NCBI GenBank assembly: GCA_025454755.1
Contig: JALONV010000001.1
Coordinates: 11,950 to 75,949 of the forward strand
Source of the DNA: Bacteroidales bacterium
Lineage (GTDB): Bacteria; Bacteroidota; Bacteroidia; Bacteroidales; VadinHA17
DNA length: 64,000 bases
Direction: 5' to 3'
Shown here: positions 33,456 to 44,859 of the stretch, one piece after another
How the letters are laid out: every line of letters begins with the position of its first letter
Position numbering within the stretch: position 1 is the stretch's first letter
Notes under the pieces: generated by a model
What the model was told of the DNA's origin: nothing
What the model saw: only the letters and a program-made list of their open reading frames with translations
Database searches by the model: none
Program-made: the position numbers and the translations under genes

Positions 33456-34082
33456 GTGGGAGAAAAGCAAAAGAAAGATTTTGGGATTGAATTGCCGCTT
33501 GTGGAGGAGTTCTATTCCATACAGGGAGAAGGATATCACACAGGCAAATCGGCATATTTCATACGCCTCGGAGGCTGTGATGTGGGATGCAGCTGGTGCG
33601 ATTCACGTTTTGCATGGGATCCGGAATTGCATCCGCTGGTAAAAACAGAAATACTTGTAGAACGTGTAGTGAGTTCTGGTGCTGATTCAGTGGTAGTTAC
33701 GGGTGGCGAGCCATTAATGTGGAACCTTGATCTGCTCTGTGAAAGATTAAAAAGGAATAATATTTGCACATTCATTGAGACATCGGGGGCATATCCTGTA
33801 AGCGGTAAATGGGACTGGATATGCCTTTCGCCGAAGAAGAAAATGCCGCCAAAAGGCAAAATATGCCGGATGGCTGATGAACTTAAAATTATAATTGAAG
33901 AGAAAAGTGATCTTGATTGGGCGGAAAAATACAGGAAGCTGGTCAGAAAAAAATGTCATCTCTACCTTCAGCCTGAATGGAGCAGGTTCGAAACCATCAT
34001 CCCTGAAATTGTCACATATGTCAGGAATAACACAGAATGGAGAATTTCCCTGCAGATTCATAAATACATGCATATACCATAG
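33456..34082 (+). CDS. queE: 7-carboxy-7-deazaguanine synthase (radical SAM)
   Basis: 'EEFYSIQGEG...FIRLGGCDVGCSWCDS' is the QueE N-terminal region and CxxxCxxC cluster motif. 208 aa. GTG start. Confidence 0.8.
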   Translation: MGEKQKKDFGIELPLVEEFYSIQGEGYHTGKSAYFIRLGGCDVGCSWCDSRFAWDPELHPLVKTEILVERVVSSGADSVVVTGGEPLMWNLDLLCERLKRNNICTFIETSGAYPVSGKWDWICLSPKKKMPPKGKICRMADELKIIIEEKSDLDWAEKYRKLVRKKCHLYLQPEWSRFETIIPEIVTYVRNNTEWRISLQIHKYMHIP

Positions 34083-34089
34083 TACAAAA

Positions 34090-36024
34090 ATGAAGCATTA
34101 TCTCGCAATATTAATATTTCTGGCATCCTGCAGTGTTTCACGCGACAGCTTTTCACAAGGCCTTCATACATCTTCAAGCAGGGCAGTAAAACTATATACT
34201 GAGGGGATGAATCATTATGATTATAACGAGATTTCAAAGGCAGAAGCTTTCTTCAAAGAAGCGCTTTCGATTGACAGCAGTTTCTATGAAGTGCATATGA
34301 TTCTTGGAGAACTTTACACAAAAACCAGAAACTATTCAGAAGCTGCAAAAAGCTATAGTGCTGCAGTGAACATCGATTCAACTTCGTACCGTCCGGTATT
34401 CTTCAGTCTGGCAAATGCAGAAATGATGATCGGGGATTATGCGAATGCTCTTATTCATTATAAAACCTACCTTAAAAGCAAAGGGGGATCGGAGAAAAAC
34501 AGAAAAATCGCCCTGAAGAACCTTACGAACTGTGAATTTGCTGTTGAAGCAGTTAAAAATCCGGTATCCTTTAATCCGGTCAACATAGGATCAAATATAA
34601 ATACCGCGGACGATGAATACTGGCCATCAATAACTGCGGATGGACAGACGCTGATGTTCACAAGACAGGTATATTCTGACTATTATCCCTCAGGTATGGC
34701 TTCAAGTCAGGAAGATTTTTACGTGAGTTTTCTTAACGATACCGGCTGGGGTCAGGCAGTAAATGCAGGAGAACCGCTTAACACACGTTCCAATGAGGGA
34801 GCTCAGACTCTCTCTTCAAACGGGAATTATATGTTTTTTACTGCCTGTGAGCGCTCCGGAGGACTGGGTAGCTGCGACATATATTTTTCTGCATTTAAAA
34901 ATGGGAAATGGTCCGTTCCATATAATCTGGGCTGGCCGGTGAATACACCTGCGTGGGAATCAACACCATCGATAAGCGCTGATGGCACAATGCTTTTTTT
35001 TACCAGCAGCCGGCAGGGTGGAAAAGGAGGGAAGGATCTCTGGTATTCCATTATCAGAAATGGTAAATGGTCGAATCCTGTGAATCCTGGCAATAACATC
35101 AATACTGATGGCGATGAAATGTCTCCTTTCATACATTTTGATGGAAAAACACTATACTTTGCTTCTGATGGTTTACCAGGCATGGGTGGCTTTGATATTT
35201 TTATGACCAGGATGAAAGAAGACAGCACCTGGTCAGAGCCAAGGAACCTGGGGTATCCTATTAATACAGCGAGTGATGAGACAGGACTTGTGATTGATGC
35301 AAACGGACAAAAAGCATATTTCTCTTCAAAACGGGATAACAAGAATGGCAAGGATATATTTTATTTTTCACTTGATGAATCGGTAAGGCCTGATCCTGTT
35401 GCCTATCTCAAAGGCAAGGTTACGGACAAAGAAACAGGCAAGCTGCTTAAAGCAGACTATGAACTTATAAACCTTTCTTCCAATAAGGTTCAGGTGAAAA
35501 GCACTACTGATGAAAACGGCAACTTCCTGGTTTGCCTGCCATCTGGATACAACTATGGCATAAATGTTACAAAATCAGGTTATCTTTTTTATTCCGAGAA
35601 CTTCATGTTTGAAGGGATTCATTCTGTTATGGAACCGATGGTAAAACGAATAAACCTTAGTCCTGCAAGAGTGGGAGAGAAGATGCTGCTATCGAACGTT
35701 TTTTATGAGGTTGATTCCTGGGAATTGAAACCGGAGTCAGTGGAAGAGCTTGACAATCTTGCAGAGCTTATCCTTTATAATAAGGATATAGTCGTAGAGA
35801 TCGGCGGATATACTGATTCAACAGGCACTGACCAGCATAACCTGGTTTTGTCGGAAAAAAGAGCTTTGTCGGTTGTTAAATACCTGATCGGCAAAGGAAT
35901 TTCCGGGGACCGTCTGCAGCATAAAGGCTATGGAAACACGTCTCCAATAGGCGATAATGTTACAATTGAAGGAAGGAAACTGAACAGGAGAACAGAGGTC
36001 AAGGTTGTCGCCCGCAGTCAATAA
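34090..36024 (+). CDS. OmpA-family protein with TPR, PD40 (TolB-like beta-propeller) repeats and a C-terminal OmpA domain
   Basis: Signal/lipobox 'LAILIFLASCS'. Repeated 'N(T/S)..DE..P.I(S/T).DG..L.F(T/A)S.R' PD40 motifs. C-terminal 'GYTDSTGTDQHNLVLSEKRA...NRRTEV' OmpA peptidoglycan-binding motif. The track ORF start at 33895 overlaps queE and was rejected. Confidence 0.8.
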   Translation: MKHYLAILIFLASCSVSRDSFSQGLHTSSSRAVKLYTEGMNHYDYNEISKAEAFFKEALSIDSSFYEVHMILGELYTKTRNYSEAAKSYSAAVNIDSTSYRPVFFSLANAEMMIGDYANALIHYKTYLKSKGGSEKNRKIALKNLTNCEFAVEAVKNPVSFNPVNIGSNINTADDEYWPSITADGQTLMFTRQVYSDYYPSGMASSQEDFYVSFLNDTGWGQAVNAGEPLNTRSNEGAQTLSSNGNYMFFTACERSGGLGSCDIYFSAFKNGKWSVPYNLGWPVNTPAWESTPSISADGTMLFFTSSRQGGKGGKDLWYSIIRNGKWSNPVNPGNNINTDGDEMSPFIHFDGKTLYFASDGLPGMGGFDIFMTRMKEDSTWSEPRNLGYPINTASDETGLVIDANGQKAYFSSKRDNKNGKDIFYFSLDESVRPDPVAYLKGKVTDKETGKLLKADYELINLSSNKVQVKSTTDENGNFLVCLPSGYNYGINVTKSGYLFYSENFMFEGIHSVMEPMVKRINLSPARVGEKMLLSNVFYEVDSWELKPESVEELDNLAELILYNKDIVVEIGGYTDSTGTDQHNLVLSEKRALSVVKYLIGKGISGDRLQHKGYGNTSPIGDNVTIEGRKLNRRTEVKVVARSQ

Positions 36025-36025
36025 A

Positions 36026-36052
36026 AAATGGCCGTCTTGGTGACGGCCATTT
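36026..36052. terminator. Bidirectional intrinsic-terminator-like hairpin
   Basis: 'AAATGGCCGTC' (36026-36036) pairs perfectly with 'GACGGCCATTT' (36042-36052) across a 5-nt loop. A/T runs flank it. It lies between convergent stops at 36024 (+) and 36097 (-). Confidence 0.65.
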
Positions 36053-36096
36053 ATACTCATGCTTGACAAAAATCAGACATTGCAACAAATTGAATT

Positions 36097-36933
36097 TCAG
36101 ATTGCGATCATGGAATTGACAAATTTGTTTATGTTGATATCCGAGCCTTCCGCTGTTTCCTTTGCGGGAACTGAAAAGTAGATGCCGGTGCCGGTGAGCC
36201 CGTTGCATTCAATCCAGACAGCTCCGCCCAGAATTGAAATAATTTTCTTGGCCAGGGTAATGTTAATCGCTGAAACTGTATCATTGTATTTGGCAAGCGA
36301 TCCATTCAGATCTTCAGTATGAAGAAATTCTTTGCATTTGAAATAACCCTGGCCGGAGTCCAAAACATAGAAGGTTACTTTTTCGTCCCTGAATTCATAA
36401 CCTATCTTTATATACCCTGAATTTGTATTTTGCAGCGCATTCTGAAACAGGATGCGAATTACCCTGAATACCCTGTCAGAATCAATAATAACATCAGTTG
36501 GATCGGGGCAGCTTTCTGTCACGAGAACAACATCCTGCTGACCTTCTCTTTTGATCATATCCCTGAATTCAGCGAGAAGTTCATCCAGAACATTGGTGAG
36601 TTTGCATATTCTCAGATCAGTTGTTAGTTTGCCCGATTCAATGATTGCAGAATCAAGAAAATTGTCCAGTAATCCTATCAGCTGTTCACACGAAGCAAGT
36701 ATCTGATTGCTGAATTCCTCTCTTTCGGAATCATTGTTTGAGTTCCGGTTCATGAGGTATGAAAACGCCACGATTGCATTCATGTGGGTTCTCACTTCGT
36801 GCGACATCCCGGTCAGGATAGTTGGACAATTTATCATACTTAGATTTGTTGAAACATCGACCTTACGAGTACCGTCCTTATTATCAGCATTATCTGATCC
36901 CAAACCCATCGTATGTAATGTAAGGTTTCTCAT
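36097..36933 (-). CDS. Histidine kinase core (HisKA + HATPase_c) without a recognisable sensor or TM domain
   Basis: H-box 'SHEVRTHMNAI', N-box 'LFQNALQNT', G1 'VLDSGQG', G2 'GLTGTG'. Only about 40 residues precede the H-box. Confidence 0.85.
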   Translation of the reverse strand: MRNLTLHTMGLGSDNADNKDGTRKVDVSTNLSMINCPTILTGMSHEVRTHMNAIVAFSYLMNRNSNNDSEREEFSNQILASCEQLIGLLDNFLDSAIIESGKLTTDLRICKLTNVLDELLAEFRDMIKREGQQDVVLVTESCPDPTDVIIDSDRVFRVIRILFQNALQNTNSGYIKIGYEFRDEKVTFYVLDSGQGYFKCKEFLHTEDLNGSLAKYNDTVSAINITLAKKIISILGGAVWIECNGLTGTGIYFSVPAKETAEGSDININKFVNSMIAI

Positions 36934-36952
36934 GTTGTGGAAAACGATTTAA

Positions 36953-37699
36953 TTACCTTATTCTTTTCAAAACTTTTCTTGCATCTTTCCTGTATATGCT
37001 TTCCGAATTAATTATCATTTTCAACTGCTCAATAGCACTCTCTTGTTCATCTGTCTGTATAAAACATAAGGCAAGATACCATTGTGCATCTTCAATGTAC
37101 AGGTTGCTGTTATTATCCACGATAGTTGTAAAGGATTGTTTAGCTACCGGGTAGTCTTTTTGTTCAAACTTTGATACGCCATACAACATGGTTGATTCCA
37201 TATCTGCAGGATTGTTCTTCAGTACCTTACTGAAATATGTGGCTGCAGTGCTGTAATCGCGGATGTTATAATAGTCCAGTCCTGTTTTAAAATCATCGTT
37301 GGCTATACTCTCTAAAGATCTTGAAGGAGAAATTCCTTCAAAATGGGTGCTGAACTTCTCGAGAATCTCATTGCCCGACATATTTCTCCCGTTATACAGA
37401 AGAAAGCTGCCAAGAAGTATAAAGACTGAGATAACTGCAGCATATTTTATCGCAGAATGCTTCCCGGGATTCTTTGCAGTTACAGCTTCTGCTCTCTGCC
37501 TTTCTATCTCACGAAGCTTGCTTCTCAGAAGAAGCGATGGATGATTCGAAAGAACCTTGTCTGTTCTGAGCCTCAGCGAAACTTCATCACGAAGTTTCTC
37601 GTTTCCTTCAAGTTCCTTTCGGAACCATTGTTTTTCAGCGTCATTCATCTCACCGGCATTATACCTTTCGATGAAATAGGAAAAATCAATTGTTTTCAT
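36953..37699 (-). CDS. Single-pass membrane protein with a C-terminal (predicted periplasmic) TPR domain; anti-sigma-factor-like architecture
   Basis: A charged N-terminal domain of about 90 aa, the TM helix 'AIKYAAVISVFILLGSFLLY', then TPR-like repeats ('YYNIRDYSTAATYFSKVLKNNP', 'FEQKDYPVAKQSFTTIV', 'AQWYLALCFIQTDEQESAIEQLKMI'). The functional label is inference from architecture. Confidence 0.55.
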   Translation of the reverse strand: MKTIDFSYFIERYNAGEMNDAEKQWFRKELEGNEKLRDEVSLRLRTDKVLSNHPSLLLRSKLREIERQRAEAVTAKNPGKHSAIKYAAVISVFILLGSFLLYNGRNMSGNEILEKFSTHFEGISPSRSLESIANDDFKTGLDYYNIRDYSTAATYFSKVLKNNPADMESTMLYGVSKFEQKDYPVAKQSFTTIVDNNSNLYIEDAQWYLALCFIQTDEQESAIEQLKMIINSESIYRKDARKVLKRIR

Positions 37700-37852
37700 A
37701 GAATTATCTTATTTGTTTTTTAACTCATTATTATCAAATCAAAAATCTATATTCTTATATGTCATTGCAAATCAATAACATGCAATCCATAGAACACACA
37801 TTATTTCATATATTCATTCATACCGGGCCATTTAACCCGCATCACCTGTTGT

Positions 37853-37873
37853 ATCATCCGGATCCCGGATGAT
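37853..37873 (-). terminator. Perfect 9-bp stem / 3-nt loop hairpin downstream of the GG-leader peptide gene (attenuator/terminator candidate)
   Basis: 'ATCATCCGG-ATC-CCGGATGAT'. It lies 52 nt after the peptide stop on the minus strand. No clear U-tract follows, so its function is uncertain. Confidence 0.35.
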
Positions 37874-37924
37874 TGTTTATTCCTGGTTATCCTGTCCTCA
37901 TGTCCAGGAATATCATATTCTTGC

Positions 37925-38062
37925 TCAGATCTTTACCGGGGGAATAGGAGGTTTAACAATCGGTTCATCCATATTGCCTCCGCGTACTTTAATCATTTCT
38001 TCCATTGACAGTGCAAACGCAGCAAAAAGTTCAGTCGTGTTTTTGAAATTCAGGGTTTTCAT
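37925..38062 (-). CDS. 45-aa double-glycine (GG) leader peptide precursor: MKTLNFKNTTELFAAFALSMEEMIKVRGG / NMDEPIVKPPIPPVKI
   Basis: Translated by hand from the minus strand (ATG 38062-38060, TGA 37927-37925). The ORF is below the track's length cut-off. Residues -12..-1, 'LSMEEMIKVRGG', fit the L-S-x-x-E-(L/M)-x-x-(I/V)-x-G-G leader consensus for C39-peptidase ABC exporters. Such an exporter is encoded at 41908..44094. Confidence 0.75.
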   Translation of the reverse strand: MKTLNFKNTTELFAAFALSMEEMIKVRGGNMDEPIVKPPIPPVKI

Positions 38063-38220
38063 TTTTTAAAGTTTTTTAATTATAAATACTAAATTCAGGG
38101 TATTTCTTTCAATCGTTTTTCAATAATACATGTAATAACTACCCGATTTGTGACACGAAAAAATCAATTATTTTTAAAATATTTTTTTAATACTTGAATA
38201 TCAATAATATACAGAGGCGT

Positions 38221-38267
38221 TATTTTTGAAACAGAAACGTTAAATTTGATATTTCCGGATATTTTTG
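38221..38267 (+). promoter_or_regulatory. Three TAnnTTTG (-7-box-like) motifs upstream of the TPR-CHAT gene
   Basis: 'TATTTTTG' at 38221-38228, 'TAAATTTG' at 38241-38248 and 'TATTTTTG' at 38260-38267. The Bacteroidetes primary-sigma -7 consensus is TAnnTTTG. The region is AT-rich, so chance matches are plausible. Confidence 0.3.
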
Positions 38268-38299
38268 AGATCTTTCAAGGGGAAAAACAGCAGTTTTTG

Positions 38300-41293
38300 A
38301 TGCTTAAAATGATTTTTATATATGGAATTTCATTCTGGGCTGCCCTGTCCGGAAATGATTCCGATCAGTTCCGGCGGCTGGCGGGCAGGATATCTGACCT
38401 TAATAATGCCGGTAATACAAATGCACTATTAATGATATCTGACAGCCTGCATCGTGCTTTAAACTTGCATCATTCTGACACTGCATCGCTGGCTGAGATC
38501 TATTATTATTCAGGAGTATGTAATCTGCTTGCTCAAAAGCAGGAAAATGCACTTGTTGACTTAAATAACTGTATTTATGCAAAGAGACAAGTTGGCATTA
38601 TGGATGAGAATTATGCCAAAGCTCTTTTTAATGCTGGTTTGTCATGCTATCAGCAGGGAGACTTTATTCAGTCGATCTCGTTTATGAAAGATTACGAGAA
38701 TCTGGCAATATCAAGATATGGTGAATACAGCGGAAACCTCGCTGAGGCCTATTCAGTATTGGCCGGGGCTTCAATAGAGTATATTGACTATGAGGGATTT
38801 GTTGATTATGCATTTAAGGCTCTCAATATAATAGGAAGGAATAAGGATGCCCTTGATGGCAATCAGCTTAGCAATCTTTATAGTACTATAGGTGTCGGCT
38901 ATATCAGGATGGCAGATTTTGCAAAGGCAAAGCTTTATCTTGAAAAGTCCGAATCGTTGATTAAGGAATTCAATATCCCTCATGATGCAAACTATATAAA
39001 CCTTATAAACAGCCTTGCATATACCTATGGAGTGCTCGGTCTTCACGATGAGGAGAAAGCATACTTCAAGAAAGGTATAGATCTCGCTGTTAATAATACT
39101 TCCAGTCTGGCTTTCAATCTAATTCATTCATATGCAATAGATATTGGTAAGGCAGGTAATGTTGACAAAGGAGAAGCACTTCTGTCGGAAGTGGTTAATA
39201 AAGCACAAAACGTATATGGAACTGATTCAAGGTTTTATATGGAGGTGCTTAATAATTATGCTAAATATCTGGTTTTATTCAGATATAAGACCGGGAATGC
39301 ACTGGAAATTTATAAAGCACTCCTTGTATATGTTTCAGAGCATCAGAACGATCTCAGCCTGAGAATGGAGGTTTTATTGGGTTTTGCAAGAGCACTTCAT
39401 GAAACTGGAAATAGTGAGAATGCCCTTAGAATCATACATGACCTGCTCTTTCAATCTACATCGGTTGAGCCGGCTGATCTATTTTCAAATCCTGCACCCG
39501 ATATTGTTCCTGCTGACAGAAGCTCGCTGAGGATTATCCAGTTTAAGCATGAAATCCTTAAGAGCTTATATCAAAAAACGCAGAACAGGGATATTTTAAT
39601 TGCTTCGGCCGAAACATCTGAGCTGATAGTGGCACTGATCGGGGAAATCCGGTTAAACATCTCTGAAGAAGAAAGCAGGCTGATTCTTGGCGACCGCTAC
39701 AGGGATTCATATTTGCTGGCAATACATGATTTTGAACAATGCTACAGAATAACTGGCGAACGCAGATTCCTTGAAAAGGCTTTTGAATTTGCTGAGAGAA
39801 GCAAAGTGGCAGGTTTGCTGGCGGCAACGCGGCAGATGAAAGCCGTGGAATTCCACATCCCTCAGAATCTGGCAGAACGCGAGAAACTGTTTCAGAATGA
39901 GATTGGATTCTATAACTCCAGGATATCTGCGGAGAATGAAAAAGAAAAGCCTGATCAGACTTTGCTTGCTCAATGGACAGAGAACCTTCTTTTAAAAGTT
40001 GCTGCCCGTGATTCTCTTGTACTGACATTTGAAAGAGATTTTCCCGATTATTTCACACTCAAGTATAATACAAAGGTGCCGCTGATGAAGGAAGTATCTT
40101 CAATCACCGGAAGAAGTCATACATATATTAACTATGTAGTTGCAGATTCTGTTTTGTATGTTTTTCTGATAAACAGGAAATATCAGGAATTGATTACAAT
40201 CAAGACCGATTCATCATTCATTAAAAACCTTGCCGATTTCAGGAGTCTGCTCTCTGATCCGTCACAGTCAGAAGACGCCAGAAAGAAATTTGAGAGTTTT
40301 CAGAGTATTGGTTATGACCTCTTCAAAATTCTCATTGAGCCTGTAAAACAATTTCTCATAAGCGATAACTTGCTTATATCCCCCGATAATATCCTCTCAT
40401 ATCTTCCATTTGAAACATTTCTTACTTCAAAATATGCCGGTAATGATATTTTATACCGTAAGCTGAAATACCTGATGAATGATTATAATATATCCTATGC
40501 ATATTCAGCAACATTTATGAGGGAGACAGTAAACAGGGATATACCAGAAAGAAACAGGCTGGTTGCTTTTGCGCCTTCATATCCGCTCTATTTGAATCTC
40601 GACTCCCTTTTAACCGAGCGGCAGGCAGGATATACCATTAAAGATATTCCATTCGCCCGGCAGGAGGCTGAGTATGTTGCCGGTACTACCCACGGCTCAC
40701 TTTATCTGAATTATGAGGCAAACGAATCTGAATACAAATCGGAAGCATCCAAATATAACCTGATCCACCTGGCGATGCATACTGTTGTGAACGATCAGAA
40801 TCCTATGAATTCGGCAATGGTCTTTGCACAGGTAAAGGATTCTGTTAATGATGGTCTGCTATATACTTATGAGGTCTATGGAATACCTCTAAAGGCAAAA
40901 ATGGTAGTTTTGAGTTCCTGCAACACCGGGAGCGGAACACTTTCTTCCGGAGAAGGTATTCTCAGCCTTGCCAGAGGATTTCTTTATTCCGGCAGCGAAT
41001 CTGTGGTAATGTCACTCTGGAAGATAGAAGACAGATCAGGTACGGACATAGTTAAGAAGTTCTACGACAATCTTAGAAAAGGAATGTCGAAGAGCAAGGC
41101 ACTGAGAAAAGCAAGATATGGTTATCTTAAAAAGGCGAGTCAGCTGAAGTCGCACCCGTATTTCTGGTCAACGCTTGTGATCTTTGGCGACAATGCGCCG
41201 GTTTTCTTTCCCTGGAAAATGATTGCTGGTTCCGGACTGGTGATAATTCTCGCTGCGATTTTACTTTTCCTTTATCTCTGGAAACGCAGATAA
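38300..41293 (+). CDS. TPR-repeat / CHAT (caspase-like protease) domain protein with an N-terminal hydrophobic segment and a C-terminal TM anchor
   Basis: The CHAT dyad context is 'LIHLAMHT' (His codon 40778-40780) and 'VVLSSCNTGSG' (Cys codon 40919-40921), followed by 'ARGFLYSGSESVVMSLW'. About 800 aa of TPR-like helical repeats lie upstream. The C-terminus is 'GLVIILAAILLFLYLWKRR'. The track ORF begins at a TTG at 38246; the first ATG is 38300 ('MLKMIFIYGISFWAALSG'). Confidence 0.85.
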   Translation: MLKMIFIYGISFWAALSGNDSDQFRRLAGRISDLNNAGNTNALLMISDSLHRALNLHHSDTASLAEIYYYSGVCNLLAQKQENALVDLNNCIYAKRQVGIMDENYAKALFNAGLSCYQQGDFIQSISFMKDYENLAISRYGEYSGNLAEAYSVLAGASIEYIDYEGFVDYAFKALNIIGRNKDALDGNQLSNLYSTIGVGYIRMADFAKAKLYLEKSESLIKEFNIPHDANYINLINSLAYTYGVLGLHDEEKAYFKKGIDLAVNNTSSLAFNLIHSYAIDIGKAGNVDKGEALLSEVVNKAQNVYGTDSRFYMEVLNNYAKYLVLFRYKTGNALEIYKALLVYVSEHQNDLSLRMEVLLGFARALHETGNSENALRIIHDLLFQSTSVEPADLFSNPAPDIVPADRSSLRIIQFKHEILKSLYQKTQNRDILIASAETSELIVALIGEIRLNISEEESRLILGDRYRDSYLLAIHDFEQCYRITGERRFLEKAFEFAERSKVAGLLAATRQMKAVEFHIPQNLAEREKLFQNEIGFYNSRISAENEKEKPDQTLLAQWTENLLLKVAARDSLVLTFERDFPDYFTLKYNTKVPLMKEVSSITGRSHTYINYVVADSVLYVFLINRKYQELITIKTDSSFIKNLADFRSLLSDPSQSEDARKKFESFQSIGYDLFKILIEPVKQFLISDNLLISPDNILSYLPFETFLTSKYAGNDILYRKLKYLMNDYNISYAYSATFMRETVNRDIPERNRLVAFAPSYPLYLNLDSLLTERQAGYTIKDIPFARQEAEYVAGTTHGSLYLNYEANESEYKSEASKYNLIHLAMHTVVNDQNPMNSAMVFAQVKDSVNDGLLYTYEVYGIPLKAKMVVLSSCNTGSGTLSSGEGILSLARGFLYSGSESVVMSLWKIEDRSGTDIVKKFYDNLRKGMSKSKALRKARYGYLKKASQLKSHPYFWSTLVIFGDNAPVFFPWKMIAGSGLVIILAAILLFLYLWKRR

Positions 41294-41838
41294 TCCTGAT
41301 ATTCAGGATCTTCTTTAATCTTCTCCATCAGGGCTTCCTTGCTGAGATATTTCTTTCGCCTGGCATAATTCTCATTTTTCATTTTCATTTTTTTTGCGAT
41401 TACCTCATAAGAATTTCCTTCTGAAAAAAGTGTCAGTATTGTCTGATACTCCGGAGTAAGTTTTTCATATGCTTTGCTTACAATCCTCTCAAACAATGAT
41501 TCATTTGACTCGTCATTGCTTGTATCATCCGGAATATCTTCACGAATTTCATCTGTTTCCTTTCTCGTCCGGAGATTATTATTCCAGATATTCCTGGCAA
41601 TGCCGAAAAAATAGCCTTTAAGGTCTGTGGTCAAGACCAGGGTATTGTCACAGATCTGATTGTACAGGACAATTATTGAGTCCTGGAATACATCAGAAAC
41701 ATCATCCGTAGAACCGCTGTTTTTGATTACATGGCTTTTTACTGGCTGATAATAATTATCATATAGCCAGTTAAGGGTTTTATCATCCTGATTTTTAATA
41801 CCCTCGATAATGTTTCTATCTGATAATTTTTTAAACAA
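41272..41838 (-). CDS. Sigma-70 family RNA polymerase sigma factor (ECF-like size, regions 2 and 4)
   Basis: 188 aa. The region-2-like stretch is 'DVSDVFQDSIIVLY...YFFGIARNIWNN'. The region-4 HTH is 'LTPEYQTILTLFSEGNSYEVIAKKMKM'. TTG start. The 3' end overlaps the convergent CHAT gene by 22 nt. Confidence 0.8.
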   Translation of the reverse strand: MFKKLSDRNIIEGIKNQDDKTLNWLYDNYYQPVKSHVIKNSGSTDDVSDVFQDSIIVLYNQICDNTLVLTTDLKGYFFGIARNIWNNNLRTRKETDEIREDIPDDTSNDESNESLFERIVSKAYEKLTPEYQTILTLFSEGNSYEVIAKKMKMKNENYARRKKYLSKEALMEKIKEDPEYQDYLRFQR

Positions 41839-41907: not shown

Positions 41908-44094
41908 ATGACATTTCCTTTTGTCAAACAACCTGATGCCATGGATTGCGGTCCTTCATGCCTTAAAATGGTGGCAGCTTATTATAAGAAGAACTTTTCT
42001 CTCGACACAATCCGGAAGAAATGCTATATAACAAAAGAGGGTGTCTCTTTTCTGGGACTTTCCGAAGCTGCCGATTCTCTGGGTTTCCGTACAATTGGTG
42101 TAAAGATCACTTTCGAGATGCTGGCCGAAAGCGTACCACTTCCATTTATTGTTCACTGGCGGCAGAAGCATTTTATTGTTGTATACAAAGTCAAAGATGA
42201 TAAAGTCTGGGCTGCAGATCCCGCATTGGGACTTGTTAAGTTATCCCGTGAGGAATTTCTGAAAAACTGGGCATCTACAATTTTTGAAGAAAAACCTGCA
42301 GGACTTGTGCTTATAATTGAACCTACTCCGGCTCTGCTTGAGCAGGAGGAGGAACAGGAAAAATCACGCGGGTTCAGGTTTCTTTTCAAATACCTGAAAC
42401 TATACGACAAATATGTTATCCAGCTTATTCTTGGCCTTTTTCTGGGAAGCTTAATCCAACTTGTCATTCCATTTCTCACACAAGCAGTTATTGACATTGG
42501 GATAAATTCGAACAACCAGAAACTCATATACCTTATACTCTTTGCACAACTTGCCCTGGTGATCGGCAGGATGTCTGTAGAGTTCATCAGAGGCTGGCTC
42601 CTGCTTTATATCGGGACCAGAGTTAATGTGTCAGTTATCTCAGGATTTCTTCAAAAGCTGATGGCGCTTCCAATTGCATTTTTTGATACCAGGCTGACCG
42701 GAGATATTCTCCAGCGTATTGATGATAATAACAGGATTGAGGAATTTCTTACTTCGGCAAGCCTCAATATGCTGTTCTCAATCTTTAACCTTGTTATTTT
42801 TGGTATAGTCCTGGCTATTTACAGCGCAAAAATATTCCTTTTATTCATGGTCGGAGCATGTCTTTATGTCCTGTGGGTTTCCCTATTCATGAAGAAAAGA
42901 GCAAGACTTGATCAGCAGCGTTTCAGGCAGATGTCTGCTGCCGGAACGAAGATGATTACAATAATTAACGGCATGCAGGAGATCAAGCTTACTCAGAGCG
43001 AAACGAGTATGCGATGGGACTGGGAAAGAGTACAGGCTTCACTTTTCGGGCTTAAAACCAAAGCTCTTGGACTTATCCAGTATCAATCTGCAGGGGCGAC
43101 ATTCATTAATGAGGTTACAAATATTGGAATTACGGTGATCGCCGCAACTTCTGTCCTTAAAGGAGAAATGACTCTGGGCATGATGCTTGCTGTTCAGTTC
43201 ATTATCGGTCAGCTTAATGTTCCACTGAGCCAGATCATAGGATTTTTCCGTGTTTCACAGGACGCAAGGATGAGCCTGGACAGATTGTCGGAAGTGCACG
43301 AAATGCAGGATGAAGAGCCTGAACCTGAAATGAAAGTCACGAAACTGCCCGAACGGAAGAGGATCTTTATTAATAATGTTTCATACCAATATGAAGGTCC
43401 GCGCTCGCCGTTTGTCCTGAAAGATGTTGACCTTGTAATAGAAGAGAACCAAACCACTGCAATCGTAGGGTCAAGTGGAAGCGGTAAAACCACTCTTCTC
43501 AAGCTTCTTCTGGGTTTTTATCAGCCTGTAAGCGGAGAAATACTCGTTGGCAATACCCGGCTCTCAAACCTGAGTTTAAAATTATGGAGAGAAAAGACCG
43601 GAGCTGTAATGCAGGATGGTTTCCTTTTTCCGGAAACAATAGCATACAACATTGCCCCTGGCATTTCTCCAATAAATGAAGAGAGACTGATGATGGCTGT
43701 TGAGATTGCAAATATTAAAGGCTTAATTGAATCGCTGCCACTGGGGTACAATACCAGGATAGGAATAGACGGACATGGATTAAGTGAGGGACAAAAGCAG
43801 AGGCTGCTTATTGCCAGGGCAGTCTACAAGAATCCGGAGATTCTAATATTCGATGAAGCAACAAATTCGCTTGATGCCGGAACTGAAAAGGTAATTGTTG
43901 AAAACCTGTCGGGGTTTTTTACAGGAAAAACAGTCATCATTGTTGCACACAGGCTTAGCACGGTGAAGGATGCAGGAAAAATTCTGGTCATGGATGGAGG
44001 AAGGATTGTGGAAACCGGAACTCATTCTTCACTTATTGACAGCCATGGTGCTTATTATAATCTTGTGAAGAACCAGCTTGAACTTGGATCATAA
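41908..44094 (+). CDS. Peptidase C39 domain-containing ABC transporter (double-glycine peptide-cleaving exporter)
   Basis: C39 catalytic context: 'QPDAMDCGPSCLKMV' (Cys), 'WRQKHFIVVYKV' (His), 'AADPALG' (Asp). Six-TM ABC membrane domain. Walker A 'GSSGSGKTT', signature 'LSEGQKQR', Walker B 'ILIFDEAT'. The ATG at 41908 is preferred over the GTG at 41845. Confidence 0.95.
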   Translation: MTFPFVKQPDAMDCGPSCLKMVAAYYKKNFSLDTIRKKCYITKEGVSFLGLSEAADSLGFRTIGVKITFEMLAESVPLPFIVHWRQKHFIVVYKVKDDKVWAADPALGLVKLSREEFLKNWASTIFEEKPAGLVLIIEPTPALLEQEEEQEKSRGFRFLFKYLKLYDKYVIQLILGLFLGSLIQLVIPFLTQAVIDIGINSNNQKLIYLILFAQLALVIGRMSVEFIRGWLLLYIGTRVNVSVISGFLQKLMALPIAFFDTRLTGDILQRIDDNNRIEEFLTSASLNMLFSIFNLVIFGIVLAIYSAKIFLLFMVGACLYVLWVSLFMKKRARLDQQRFRQMSAAGTKMITIINGMQEIKLTQSETSMRWDWERVQASLFGLKTKALGLIQYQSAGATFINEVTNIGITVIAATSVLKGEMTLGMMLAVQFIIGQLNVPLSQIIGFFRVSQDARMSLDRLSEVHEMQDEEPEPEMKVTKLPERKRIFINNVSYQYEGPRSPFVLKDVDLVIEENQTTAIVGSSGSGKTTLLKLLLGFYQPVSGEILVGNTRLSNLSLKLWREKTGAVMQDGFLFPETIAYNIAPGISPINEERLMMAVEIANIKGLIESLPLGYNTRIGIDGHGLSEGQKQRLLIARAVYKNPEILIFDEATNSLDAGTEKVIVENLSGFFTGKTVIIVAHRLSTVKDAGKILVMDGGRIVETGTHSSLIDSHGAYYNLVKNQLELGS

Positions 44095-44103
44095 TCTATA
44101 AGG

Positions 44104-44673
44104 ATGAAGGATAATAAATTTGAAATATTGTACTCTGATCATGTAAACGATATTATCTCAAAACCTCCAAGAAAAATTGTAAGGTGGGGAACCGTCGTTA
44201 TTTTTTCAGTTTTCACACTTTTTGTATTGCTTGCCTGGATTATCAAATATCCTGATGTAATATCCGCCCCTGTGGTAATTTCGAAATCAGGTCTTCCAGC
44301 CGGGTCCGTCTCTCAAATAACAGGGGATAAGGTACCAGAAAATTCCTGCGGGTATATTGGAAGAATAAGCCTGGGAATTGAAAGATCAGGCAAGGTTGCT
44401 GTTGATCAAAAAGTAAATATCAAGGTAAGCGCATACCCGTTTTTCGAATATGGAATCTTAGAAGGGACCATCAGGTCCAAAACATTTGCTGAGTCAAGCA
44501 ATACATATGATCTGGAAGTAACACTTAATCAGGGTCTTAAAACAACTTATGGAATAACTATCGAATTCACACAGAATATGCAGGGGAGTGCAGATATACT
44601 TACAAATGATAAAAGGTTTTTGCAAAGGATCATTAATCCGCTCAGACATCAGATCACTAAAAACATCAAATGA
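44104..44673 (+). CDS. HlyD-family secretion adaptor, unusually short (189 aa; central coiled-coil/lipoyl region apparently absent)
   Basis: The N-terminus 'PPRKIVRWGTVVIFSVFTLFVLLAWIIKYPDVISAPVVI' and C-terminus 'GKVAVDQKVNIKVSAYPFFEYGILEGTI...MQGSADILTNDKRFLQRIINPL' match the two ends of Bacteroidota bacteriocin-exporter HlyD proteins. Those are normally about twice this length. Confidence 0.7.
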   Translation: MKDNKFEILYSDHVNDIISKPPRKIVRWGTVVIFSVFTLFVLLAWIIKYPDVISAPVVISKSGLPAGSVSQITGDKVPENSCGYIGRISLGIERSGKVAVDQKVNIKVSAYPFFEYGILEGTIRSKTFAESSNTYDLEVTLNQGLKTTYGITIEFTQNMQGSADILTNDKRFLQRIINPLRHQITKNIK

Positions 44674-44859
44674 TCATTTATTGCTGTCTGCATAAGGCTC
44701 ATAATCATCATCTTCCGATTTTGAAGAAAATTTCGAACGGGAATCGGAACTTTGATTCCGGCTGGTACCCTCAGCATTTTTCTTCATATACTTCCTGTAA
44801 AGACTGTACGCTACAGCCACAAGACAGGCTACAAGAATGATAATATCTTTTGTTTCCAT
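44674..44859 (-). CDS. Small single-TM protein with a charged, Ser-rich tail (hypothetical)
   Basis: 61-aa ORF with the TM helix 'IIILVACLVAVAYSLY' followed by a low-complexity acidic tail. No family recognised. Coding status is uncertain. Confidence 0.4.
   Translation of the reverse strand: METKDIIILVACLVAVAYSLYRKYMKKNAEGTSRNQSSDSRSKFSSKSEDDDYEPYADSNK

Follow-up and report, generated by a model that had tools for sequence, protein, structure and literature searches.

The window analysed here is a stretch of 64,000 nucleotides (nt) from a Bacteroidales genome (contig JALONV010000001.1), and the subject of this report is a gene of 45 codons on its minus strand, which encodes a small peptide precursor with a double-glycine (GG) leader. 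We found that this reading frame is a real protein-coding gene under protein-level selection, that it lies in a block of seven genes whose order and orientation are constant, and that its first codons and the nucleotide leader upstream of them carry a motif complementary to several sites in the histidine kinase gene of the same block. With modest confidence, we read the gene as the precursor of an unmodified exported signalling peptide that serves an envelope module, to which a layer of RNA pairing between the leader and the kinase gene is added.

A double-glycine peptide gene and its family

The gene and the two parts of its product are as follows.

37925..38062, minus strand: peptide precursor gene, 45 codons, ATG at 38062-38060 and TGA at 37927-37925; translation MKTLNFKNTTELFAAFALSMEEMIKVRGGNMDEPIVKPPIPPVKI
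37976-38062, minus strand: leader of the peptide, residues 1-29, the GG being residues 28-29
37928-37975, minus strand: predicted peptide core NMDEPIVKPPIPPVKI, 16 residues

Retranslation of positions 37925-38062 of the minus strand reproduced what the initial annotation had reported, namely the open reading frame (ORF), its start and stop, the leader and the composition of the core. Counted back from the GG, the leader has V(-4), M(-7), E(-8), S(-11) and L(-12), and so shows the features of the double-glycine class, with hydrophobic residues at -4, -7 and -12, an acidic residue at -8 and a GG end. The core contains five prolines among its 16 residues, two acidic and two basic residues, and no Cys, Ser, Thr or Arg, for a net charge of about 0. 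The gene had also been described as unannotated. This did not hold, as public records already contain an identical protein (NCBI MCU0460431.1, 'hypothetical protein MUF36_00235 [Bacteroidales bacterium]') on a 78,925-bp contig of a metagenome-assembled genome (MAG), and the JGI and Logan gene callers likewise predict the gene.

When all ATG-initiated ORFs of 25-120 amino acids (aa) in the window were scanned, the peptide gene was the single one with the GG-leader pattern. In 100 simulated windows (second-order Markov), the strict form of the pattern, with E at -8 and S or T at -11, occurred 0 times, and a loose form occurred 0.53 times per window. Because of this background, the GG motif by itself is suggestive, not decisive.

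The comparison of related loci was more informative. We collected 104 of them, with 86 distinct peptide coding sequences. Both signs of coding that the initial annotation had named, a conserved frame in syntenic loci and a dominance of synonymous change, were observed: a complete ORF of 41-49 aa was present in 103 of the 104 loci, and substitutions concentrated at third positions. Beyond the first six codons, mean entropy at codon positions 1, 2 and 3 was 0.76, 0.63 and 1.34 bits, and the Nei-Gojobori mean pN/pS was 0.41 for 15 orthologues, with dN/dS of 0.09-0.7 for the closest informative pairs. In VRGG, the Val, Arg and both Gly codons had an entropy of about 0 at positions 1-2 and of 1.5-1.6 bits at position 3, and the invariant GG, E and M residues changed freely between synonymous codons. 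Variation in length came as whole codons and was found in the linker. The peptide ORF is a real protein-coding gene under protein-level selection. An opposite-strand ORF of 66 aa (37869-38069, plus strand), whose conservation had been named as a finding that would count against the gene, was rejected, its frame containing stops in 6 of 15 orthologues. Neither the peptide nor this antisense ORF gave any match in Pfam.

Two observations concern the N-terminus. Three loci (L011, L034 and L052) have an insertion of two codons there (MKTKTLNF...), which places the first ATG 6 nt upstream of the aligned position and explains an apparent ACG start in L011. The N-terminus of the peptide (MKTLNF, 38045-38062, minus strand) also resembles that of the 248-aa TPR protein encoded next to it (MKTIDF, 37682-37699, minus strand), each being near-invariant in its own family.

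The peptide is one of a family. A word-indexed search returned 21 close clusters of 44-47 aa, and a HMMER profile search of 1.84 billion representatives, with clusters formed at 50% identity, returned 110 clusters at E<=1e-3, of which 31 at E<=1e-10. The leaders follow the pattern MKTLN-x8-F-x-(E)F-x-L(S/T)-x-EEMI-x-VRGG, and G28, G29, V26, M23, E22 and L18 are invariant or almost so in alignments of 22 and 86 sequences. A short linker follows, which is acidic or Gly-rich and mostly ends in [DE]-P. The cores have 13-18 residues, an acidic N-terminus and no conserved Cys, Ser, Thr or Tyr; their most conserved part is the C-terminus, which has the pattern P..P..PP[IV]K[IL]-COOH in about 110 clusters and, written to fit all members, reads P-x-x-P-P-[VI]-[KRI]-[ILV]-COOH.

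Known models describe the leader better than the core. When 73 family members were scanned singly, sub-threshold matches were obtained to GG-leader families alone: to TIGR04149 in 29 of the 73, to the lichenicidin A2 leader in 20, and to a few class II bacteriocin models. TIGR01847 matched three members at E<=1, the best at 7e-6. Short GG-leader hidden Markov models (HMMs) are weak tests of membership. Since the sub-threshold matches fall solely in GG-leader families, we assigned the leader to the general GG-leader class. No model in Pfam or NCBIfam captured the peptide family; judged by its sequence, the core stands apart as a separate family, and the peptide represents a new GG-peptide family, not a member of TIGR04149.

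Complementarity of the peptide leader to sites in the kinase gene

The beginning of the peptide gene is constrained at the nucleotide level as well. Third-position entropy is low in codons 1-5, and 14 of 15 orthologues share the same synonymous choices in codons 2-6 (AAA ACC CTG AAT TTC), while Leu and Thr codons elsewhere are free to vary. The 10-mer ACCCTGAATT contained in these codons recurs about 40 nt upstream, in the leader, where the motif ACCCUGAAU is the element that we propose for pairing with the kinase gene. This constraint had escaped the initial annotation, as had the fixed module and the adjacent protease, a possible processor or sensor of the peptide, which are described in the following section. 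The elements concerned are listed below.

38091..38105, minus strand: leader copy A of the ACCCTGAAT motif (AAATACCCTGAATTT), complementary to the kinase-gene sites
38047..38056, minus strand: copy B of ACCCTGAATT, in codons 2-6 (K T L N F)
36386..36569, minus strand: four kinase sites (A/T)ATTCAGGG(T/A), the reverse complement of the 10-mer, on the sense strand
36560-36569: kinase site 1
36454-36470: kinase site 2
36412-36424: kinase site 3
36386-36395: kinase site 4

In the window, leader copy A and kinase site 3 are perfectly complementary over 13 nt. The leader of most orthologues carries CGAATTACCCTGAA, which is complementary to TTCAGGGTAATTCG in the kinase gene, where it codes for V-F-R-V-I-R. 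Constraint on the kinase gene was counted in 52-54 distinct orthologues. The 7-mer TTCAGGG was observed 118 times, compared with 32 expected from synonymous-codon shuffling. At the three Phe-Arg sites, taken together, Phe is encoded by TTC in 121 of 123 cases, relative to 45% gene-wide, and Arg is encoded by AGG in 49, 47 and 37 sequences versus AGA in 3, 4 and 4. Five of the 11 most synonymously constrained codons of the kinase gene fall in the four sites.

We then compared the predicted duplexes. The leader region (-60..+30) was scanned against 12-20 kb per locus, and its best partner lay in the kinase gene for 15 of 18 loci, at -22 to -28 kcal/mol, the background being -8 +/- 3. Cognate leader-kinase duplexes reached -27.45 kcal/mol, and non-cognate ones -25.68 (permutation p = 1.5e-4). 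In a fixed 15-pair helix, 73% of cells were paired in register versus 22-44% when the strands were slid, and an orthologue typically had 11-16 bp. Helix cells altered on both sides numbered 16, relative to 7.5 +/- 2.2 after shuffling, and none of 500 shuffles reached 16. Compensatory changes are seen in L102 (leader GUAACCCGAUU with kinase AAUCGGGUUAC), in L086 (GUAAAGCAUUA with UAAUGCUUUAC) and in L092 (ACCCUGAAUGA with UCAUUCAGGGU). Loss and retention also go together: where the motif is lost in both leader copies, it is missing at all four kinase sites (3/3 loci), and where a leader copy is present, kinase site 1 carries the motif in 46 of 49 loci. The complementarity is thus conserved and accompanied by covariation, as expected of a base-pairing RNA, with phylogenetic non-independence as a caveat. 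The shuffle tests overstate significance because the sequences are related, and related sequences can beat all shuffles without any structure.

As A-C and G-T mismatches are about equally frequent, the RNA level and the DNA level cannot be told apart by them. From the sequences, we favour RNA-RNA pairing, which would occur inside a joint transcript if the peptide, TPR-protein and kinase genes are transcribed together, and otherwise between the kinase mRNA and a separate short RNA of the peptide. A scan of 35900-38400 with Rfam at E<=1 returned nothing. A possible third motif copy, in the D-K-T-L-N codons of the sigma gene, was dropped for its weak enrichment (11 vs 5.9). Outside the four sites, kinase codons 192-203 (SGQGYFKCKEFL, ~36325-36360) show low synonymous variability, with a normalised entropy of 0.37-0.45 relative to a mean of 0.66; they may be another pairing or regulatory site.

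The seven-gene block

The block reads, in order, kinase (-), 248-aa TPR protein (-), peptide (-), TPR-CHAT (+), extracytoplasmic function (ECF) sigma factor (-), C39-ABC exporter (+) and HlyD adaptor (+). The six genes other than that of the peptide are as follows.

36097..36933, minus strand: soluble histidine kinase, 278 aa, HisKA and HATPase_c, with no membrane segment and no sensor domain
36953..37699, minus strand: single-pass TPR membrane protein, 248 aa, Pfam TPR, hydrophobic segment 83-104
38297..41293, plus strand: TPR-CHAT caspase-like protease, ~998 aa, divergent from the peptide gene, Pfam CHAT 5e-56
41272..41838, minus strand: ECF-type sigma factor, 188 aa, TIGR02937 at 52.5 bits (cut-off 42.9)
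41908..44094, plus strand: C39-ABC exporter, 728 aa from the ATG at 41908, with C39 peptidase, transmembrane domain and ATPase (Pfam; TIGR01193, TIGR03796)
44104..44673, plus strand: HlyD-family adaptor, 189 aa, with the N-terminal membrane anchor and C-terminal beta-barrel kept

Searches with tblastn of the block proteins showed that gene order and orientation are constant in every locus with a long enough contig. Locus L102 has a peptide (P0065) with a divergent core. It retains all seven genes, and beyond the adaptor it has LamB/YcsF, carboxyltransferase and Nramp genes in place of DUF349. Its contig stops shortly past the kinase gene, and only the flank on the adaptor side can be read. Because L102 keeps the seven genes beside a different flank, these genes appear to be the unit. 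The contexts of distant members were obtained by exact-sequence look-ups: the block is present around P0067, the TPR protein follows the peptide on the short contig of P0077, and two contigs were too short to inform. A metagenome scan with alignment A3 found orthologous loci of the same clade only, and full-text literature searches gave no description of the peptide family or of the seven-gene block.

The exporter is a plausible partner of the peptide. Its C39 domain was aligned to those of LahT (6mpz), PCAT1 (4ry2) and ComA (3k8u), and the catalytic residues are intact, namely the oxyanion Gln, the Cys (MDCGPSC), the His (KHFIVV) and the Asp (AADP). This bore out the intact catalytic context that had been claimed for an exporter nearby, and the exporter is co-conserved with the peptide, L102 included, as would be expected of a cognate pair. 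Across orthologues it is 75-84% identical, level with housekeeping neighbours.

The TPR-CHAT protein has a His-Cys catalytic dyad (IHLAMHT and LSSCNTG) that is invariant in 36 homologues. It starts with a signal-like hydrophobic segment and ends in a membrane helix followed by WKRR, and according to the positive-inside rule its bulk would be extracytoplasmic. An AlphaFold2 (AF2) model (pLDDT 82, pTM 0.77) gave separases and DdvA (8rot, 8rw5) as the top fold matches in the PDB at E of about 1e-12, with DdvA as the second and third best. A search of the PDB with the sequence returned designed TPR proteins only.

The 248-aa TPR gene is directly downstream of the peptide gene in all loci examined. 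The protein is predicted to have a helical N-terminus of about 80 residues, a membrane helix (83-104) and a C-terminal domain of three TPRs (AF2 pLDDT 81). Structural matches of this domain include YbgF and TPRs whose ligands are C-terminal peptides, such as Hop TPR2A-MEEVD, and Foldseek with the full model returned TPR matches only. By its architecture, and as a guess, the protein is a candidate anti-sigma factor, a candidate peptide receptor, or both.

The ECF sigma gene points towards the CHAT gene and away from the exporter gene. CHAT and sigma genes share 22 nt at their 3' ends (41272-41293), and this overlap is kept in orthologues (for example 6633-6654 in L001 and 6680-6707 in L003), which suggests possible transcriptional interference or coupling.

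Around the peptide gene, three non-coding elements were noted.

38128..38155 (region 38120-38166), minus strand: two-block motif TGTCAC-N16-ACATGT, preceded by a T-run
~38127-38120, minus strand: TAnnTTTG-like box TATTATTG, after ACATGT, resembling the Bacteroidota -7 element
37853..37912, minus strand: two stable hairpins directly past the peptide stop, UAUUCCUGG...CCAGGAAUA and AUCAUCCGG-GAU-CCGGAUGAU

The two-block motif is the most conserved non-coding element. In the form TGTCAC-N14-18-CATGTA, it is found in exactly one copy per locus in 89 of the 104 loci, 60-95 nt upstream of the peptide ATG, and the distant members L100-L104 have it too; the whole window contains one occurrence. We read it as a putative binding site (promoter or operator) of a dedicated sigma factor or regulator, and the ECF sigma factor of the block is a plausible candidate. 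Past the stop codon, the fold of 37700-37930 has z = -3.4, and the hairpins may be a terminator or a processing signal between the peptide gene and the next gene. A terminator role is uncertain because there is no U-tract on the peptide strand, and the hairpin at 37853-37873 was detected by the terminator scan on the plus strand only. Scans for sigma-70 consensus promoters and for terminators are uninformative for Bacteroidota.

Two genes at the edges of the block were also seen. At 33895-36024 (plus strand) lies a gene for a PorE/CHU_0125-like OmpA-PD40 outer-membrane protein, of a family associated with type IX secretion, which scores slightly under the cut-offs of the models; almost every locus has it in synteny, but it is probably outside the block. 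Between the adaptor and DUF349 lies an ORF of 61 aa (44674-44859, minus strand) for a protein that has a single membrane helix at its N-terminus and a tail rich in Ser and Asp; this protein is conserved in most loci (37-60% identity), is absent in L102, and is a candidate immunity-like protein.

A proposed signalling circuit and its alternatives

The mechanism that we infer takes in cleavage, export, a lack of modification, a receptor, an anti-sigma role, a protease situated in the periplasm and, in vivo, RNA pairing. The C39-ABC exporter would most probably cut the 29-residue leader after the GG (G29) and would export NMDEPIVKPPIPPVKI as an unmodified, proline-rich peptide of about 16 residues. 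With its conserved free C-terminus, PP[VI]K[IL], this peptide would act as a diffusible or periplasmic ligand of the module. TPR modules typically bind C-terminal peptides, and the C-terminus would be bound here by the TPR domain of either the 248-aa protein or the membrane-anchored TPR-CHAT. Binding would alter the cleavage by CHAT of the TPR membrane protein or of CHAT itself, and the activity or release of the ECF sigma factor would thereby be controlled, in analogy to the DdvA and craspase/Csx30/RpoE models. The TGTCAC-N16-ACATGT promoter of the peptide, TPR-protein and kinase genes would in turn be under the control of the ECF sigma factor or of some other dedicated regulator, in a feedback loop. 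In addition, the peptide leader and first codons would pair with three or four coding sites in the kinase gene, which would couple the expression of peptide and kinase.

Several observations weigh against this reading. First, in the leader-model search proposed by the initial annotation, family leaders were matched below threshold, as described above, and the window peptide scored 12 bits against TIGR04149, for which the cut-off is 25, in the leader region only, and this was its sole HMM match. Second, every carrier is a MAG of an uncultured member of the Bacteroidales or Bacteroidia, recovered from fens, sediments and comparable habitats, and the synteny of the block is largely vertical and confined to one clade. 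QueE, the PorE-like OmpA protein and the DUF349 gene are also syntenic with the block, and much of the synteny is for this reason vertical inheritance; only L102 parts the block from its flank, and on one side. Third, the covariation signal is modest, and the DUF349 gene, used as a control, had a similar 7-mer ratio (28 vs 8.4). We therefore gave less weight to the 7-mer enrichment and relied on the counts of codons at each site, on the duplex scan and on the comparison of cognate with non-cognate pairs. Fourth, no anti-sigma domain was matched in the 248-aa protein by Pfam at E<=10 with five N-terminal sequences, so that the anti-sigma label stays a guess. It is also not obvious what the kinase would do in the sigma pathway that we propose, and we identified no cognate response regulator for it. 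Finally, the window adaptor corresponds to residues 1-74 and 317-427 of the 430-aa orthologue in L003. The in-frame deletion covers about 240 residues (~75-316), with the lipoyl domain and the alpha-hairpin, and is also seen in L001, L002 and the P0002 contig. Export past the periplasm is doubtful in the window lineage because the adaptor is without these central residues; in this sub-lineage, export across the outer membrane may have been lost or may be unnecessary.

A variant of the proposed mechanism makes the peptide a substrate of TPR-CHAT or a securin-like pseudosubstrate inhibitor, with the acidic residues and Pro after the GG placed in the active site. Separases are kept inactive by securin, whose pseudosubstrate the acidic stretch of the peptide may resemble, and the best fold matches of the CHAT model are separases. 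The peptide and CHAT genes are moreover divergent, with one common intergenic region in every locus, and the [DE]-x-[DE]-P stretch after the GG is conserved. However, the strongest conservation of the core is at the C-terminus and not in this acidic stretch. The variant is equally compatible with the data and is partly a sub-case of the mechanism above, but taken as a separate explanation we consider it unlikely.

The computational checks named in the initial annotation turned out in favour of its interpretation. It had left the choice between a signal and a proline-rich antimicrobial, and the first of the two fits better. Proline-rich antimicrobials are strongly cationic and have Pro-Arg-Pro repeats, whereas this core is short, has a charge of about 0, no Arg and an acidic N-terminal stretch, and is encoded in single copy among regulators. 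The related view, that the product is an unmodified class II-type bacteriocin or antimicrobial exported against competitors, with the regulators controlling only its production, agrees with the GG leader, the dedicated exporter and adaptor, and the weak matches of family leaders to class IIb and other bacteriocin models. In principle, the 61-aa membrane protein beside the adaptor could be its immunity protein. Class II bacteriocins have about 25-60 residues, are cationic or amphipathic and come with an immunity gene; the cores here have 13-18 residues, a charge of about 0 or below, and no amphipathic character, and the 61-aa protein is missing precisely in L102, the locus with the changed flank. 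Furthermore, the peptide gene is single-copy, vertical and in fixed synteny, not patchy or mobile, its core motif is conserved over about 110 clusters instead of diversifying, and the peptide is still intact in the window lineage, where the adaptor is internally deleted. On these grounds a bacteriocin is quite improbable.

We give even less credence to a ribosomally synthesised and post-translationally modified peptide (RiPP), with the modifying enzyme encoded elsewhere or unrecognised in the block (CHAT itself, or a proline- or lysine-directed chemistry). TIGR04149, the best sub-threshold match, comprises radical-SAM-modified peptides of Bacteroidota, a radical-SAM gene lies 4 kb away, and the strict Pro-Pro-[VI]-K-[IL] C-terminus would also fit the recognition site of an enzyme. 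However, the TIGR04149 match is confined to the leader and below cut-off, and the core is without conserved Cys, Ser, Thr and Tyr. The radical-SAM gene (33456-34082) was rejected as a maturase: it is the sole one within 10 kb, and it matched no maturase model but gave its best scores with five QueE models, in each case under the curated cut-off. No gene of SPASM, lanthipeptide, cyclodehydratase, ATP-grasp or sulfotransferase type was found inside the block in any locus. The earlier statement that no modifying enzyme is nearby stands for the block.

About as doubtful is the explanation that the leader and kinase repeats are DNA recombination sites of an invertible segment of 1.6 kb. Phase variation by DNA inversion is common in Bacteroidales. 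On DNA the repeats are inverted copies of 11-16 bp that change together from lineage to lineage, and the segment between them holds the peptide gene, the TPR gene and half of the kinase gene; the near equality of A-C and G-T mismatches means that wobble tolerance gives the RNA reading no advantage. In contrast, all of the ~60 independently assembled loci with CHAT and peptide show one orientation, no recombinase gene is found inside or beside the block, and the sites are several and dispersed (two in the leader, three or four in the kinase gene) instead of forming one pair. Finally, the region might act only as a regulatory RNA leader of the TPR-protein/kinase operon, with an untranslated ORF, as could be suggested by its complementarity with kinase sites and by the constraint on the nucleotides of codons 1-6. 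This is scarcely credible given codon-periodic variation past these codons, whole-codon indels, free synonymous change at invariant residues and a frame open in 103 of 104 loci.

The preferred reading, an exported signalling peptide of an envelope module, has partial precedents. In having a ~29-residue GG leader and an adjacent C39 exporter, the system resembles those of ComC/ComA, the class II bacteriocins and the LahT/PCAT1 substrates. Unlike ComC/ComA-type systems, it is found in a Gram-negative Bacteroidales host, its core is a neutral, proline-rich 16-mer, and its kinase is soluble: the 278-aa protein has neither the hydrophobic segment nor the sensor domain of a ComD-type membrane receptor kinase. 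Unlike the curated GG-leader families, the peptide falls below the leader HMM cut-offs. The closest functional analogues are RaxX/RaxB and the presumed HetC signalling peptide. RaxX is proline-rich. In Xanthomonas oryzae, the RaxX/RaxB/RaxA system has a GG-leader precursor that is secreted by a peptidase-ABC transporter with an adaptor, and its product is a short signal, not a toxin (10.1101/442517; PMC6637879). RaxX differs in its use of the RaxST tyrosine sulfotransferase and a Tyr, compared with no sulfotransferase and no conserved Tyr here, and in its target, a plant receptor; the Rax system contains no ECF sigma factor or CHAT protease. In Nostoc, HetF is the founding CHAT protease, and HetC acts in the same developmental pathway. 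HetC is a Gram-negative peptidase-ABC transporter implicated in the export of a regulatory peptide, not a toxin (PMC10986499). The HetC substrate is unknown, the genes do not form one block, and there is no sequence relation to the peptide described here.

For the regulatory half of the block, the nearest precedent is DdvA/DdvS of Myxococcus xanthus, in which an ECF sigma factor is paired with a membrane-anchored TPR-CHAT of separase/craspase type with a His-Cys dyad (PMC11506125). DdvA is the only characterised anti-sigma factor of the TPR-CHAT type and has a regulon of CBASS/CRISPR defence; its activating signal is still missing, and its authors suggest a protein or peptide (PMC11506125). 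The block likewise has an ECF sigma factor (TIGR02937) and a TPR-CHAT with the His-Cys dyad. DdvA, however, combines a zinc anti-sigma domain, a membrane helix and TPR-CHAT in one chain, whereas here the candidate anti-sigma factor is the separate 248-aa protein, and in place of a defence regulon the block holds a peptide and its exporter. As there is no cytoplasmic anti-sigma domain on the same chain, the TPR-CHAT is not a DdvA orthologue. In type III-E craspase, the TPR-CHAT protein Csx29 is reported to cut Csx30 and free an RpoE-type sigma factor (PMC10028731). Here, too, a TPR-CHAT gene stands beside an ECF-type sigma gene, and the window sigma factor gives a faint match to the III-E sigma model (E = 0.007). 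Unlike craspase, which is cytoplasmic and activated by target RNA, the protease here is predicted to be extracytoplasmic, and the block contains no CRISPR genes.

For the nucleotide layer, RNAIII/hld (agr) and the prgQ RNA (pCF10) are mRNAs of small peptides that also base-pair with the mRNA of a regulator of the same circuit. Unlike in these cases, both partners are here on the same strand, possibly in one transcript. To our knowledge, Bacteroidota lack Hfq and ProQ. What appears to be new, as judged by comparative sequence analysis, is a GG-peptide family wired to an ECF sigma/TPR-CHAT module with an added conserved element at the RNA or DNA level.

In its boldest form, the proposal is a self-contained circuit, in which the 16-mer is an autoinducer that is read by a periplasmic TPR, activates CHAT, leads to clipping of the TPR anti-sigma factor and frees the ECF sigma factor, while its mRNA has a dual function and pairs with the kinase mRNA. 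We put this forward as a tentative possibility that is rather unlikely to hold in full. Peptide signalling between cells is well known in Firmicutes and, as far as we know, essentially undescribed in Bacteroidota; likewise, we know of no activating signal for extracytoplasmic TPR-CHAT proteases. If true, the circuit would provide the first defined ligand of a TPR-CHAT/anti-sigma pathway and would be, for Bacteroidota, the first peptide system that resembles quorum sensing, and the conserved pairing between peptide mRNA and kinase would join the rare cases of dual-function mRNAs. The block supplies a candidate ligand of 16 residues that can be synthesised. Because this peptide adjoins its exporter, the TPR-CHAT protease, the membrane-bound TPR protein and the ECF sigma factor, the question of the ligand is testable with few purified parts. 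More generally, the peptide gene is a case of those 'hypothetical' MAG genes of fewer than 60 codons that are able to define whole regulatory modules.

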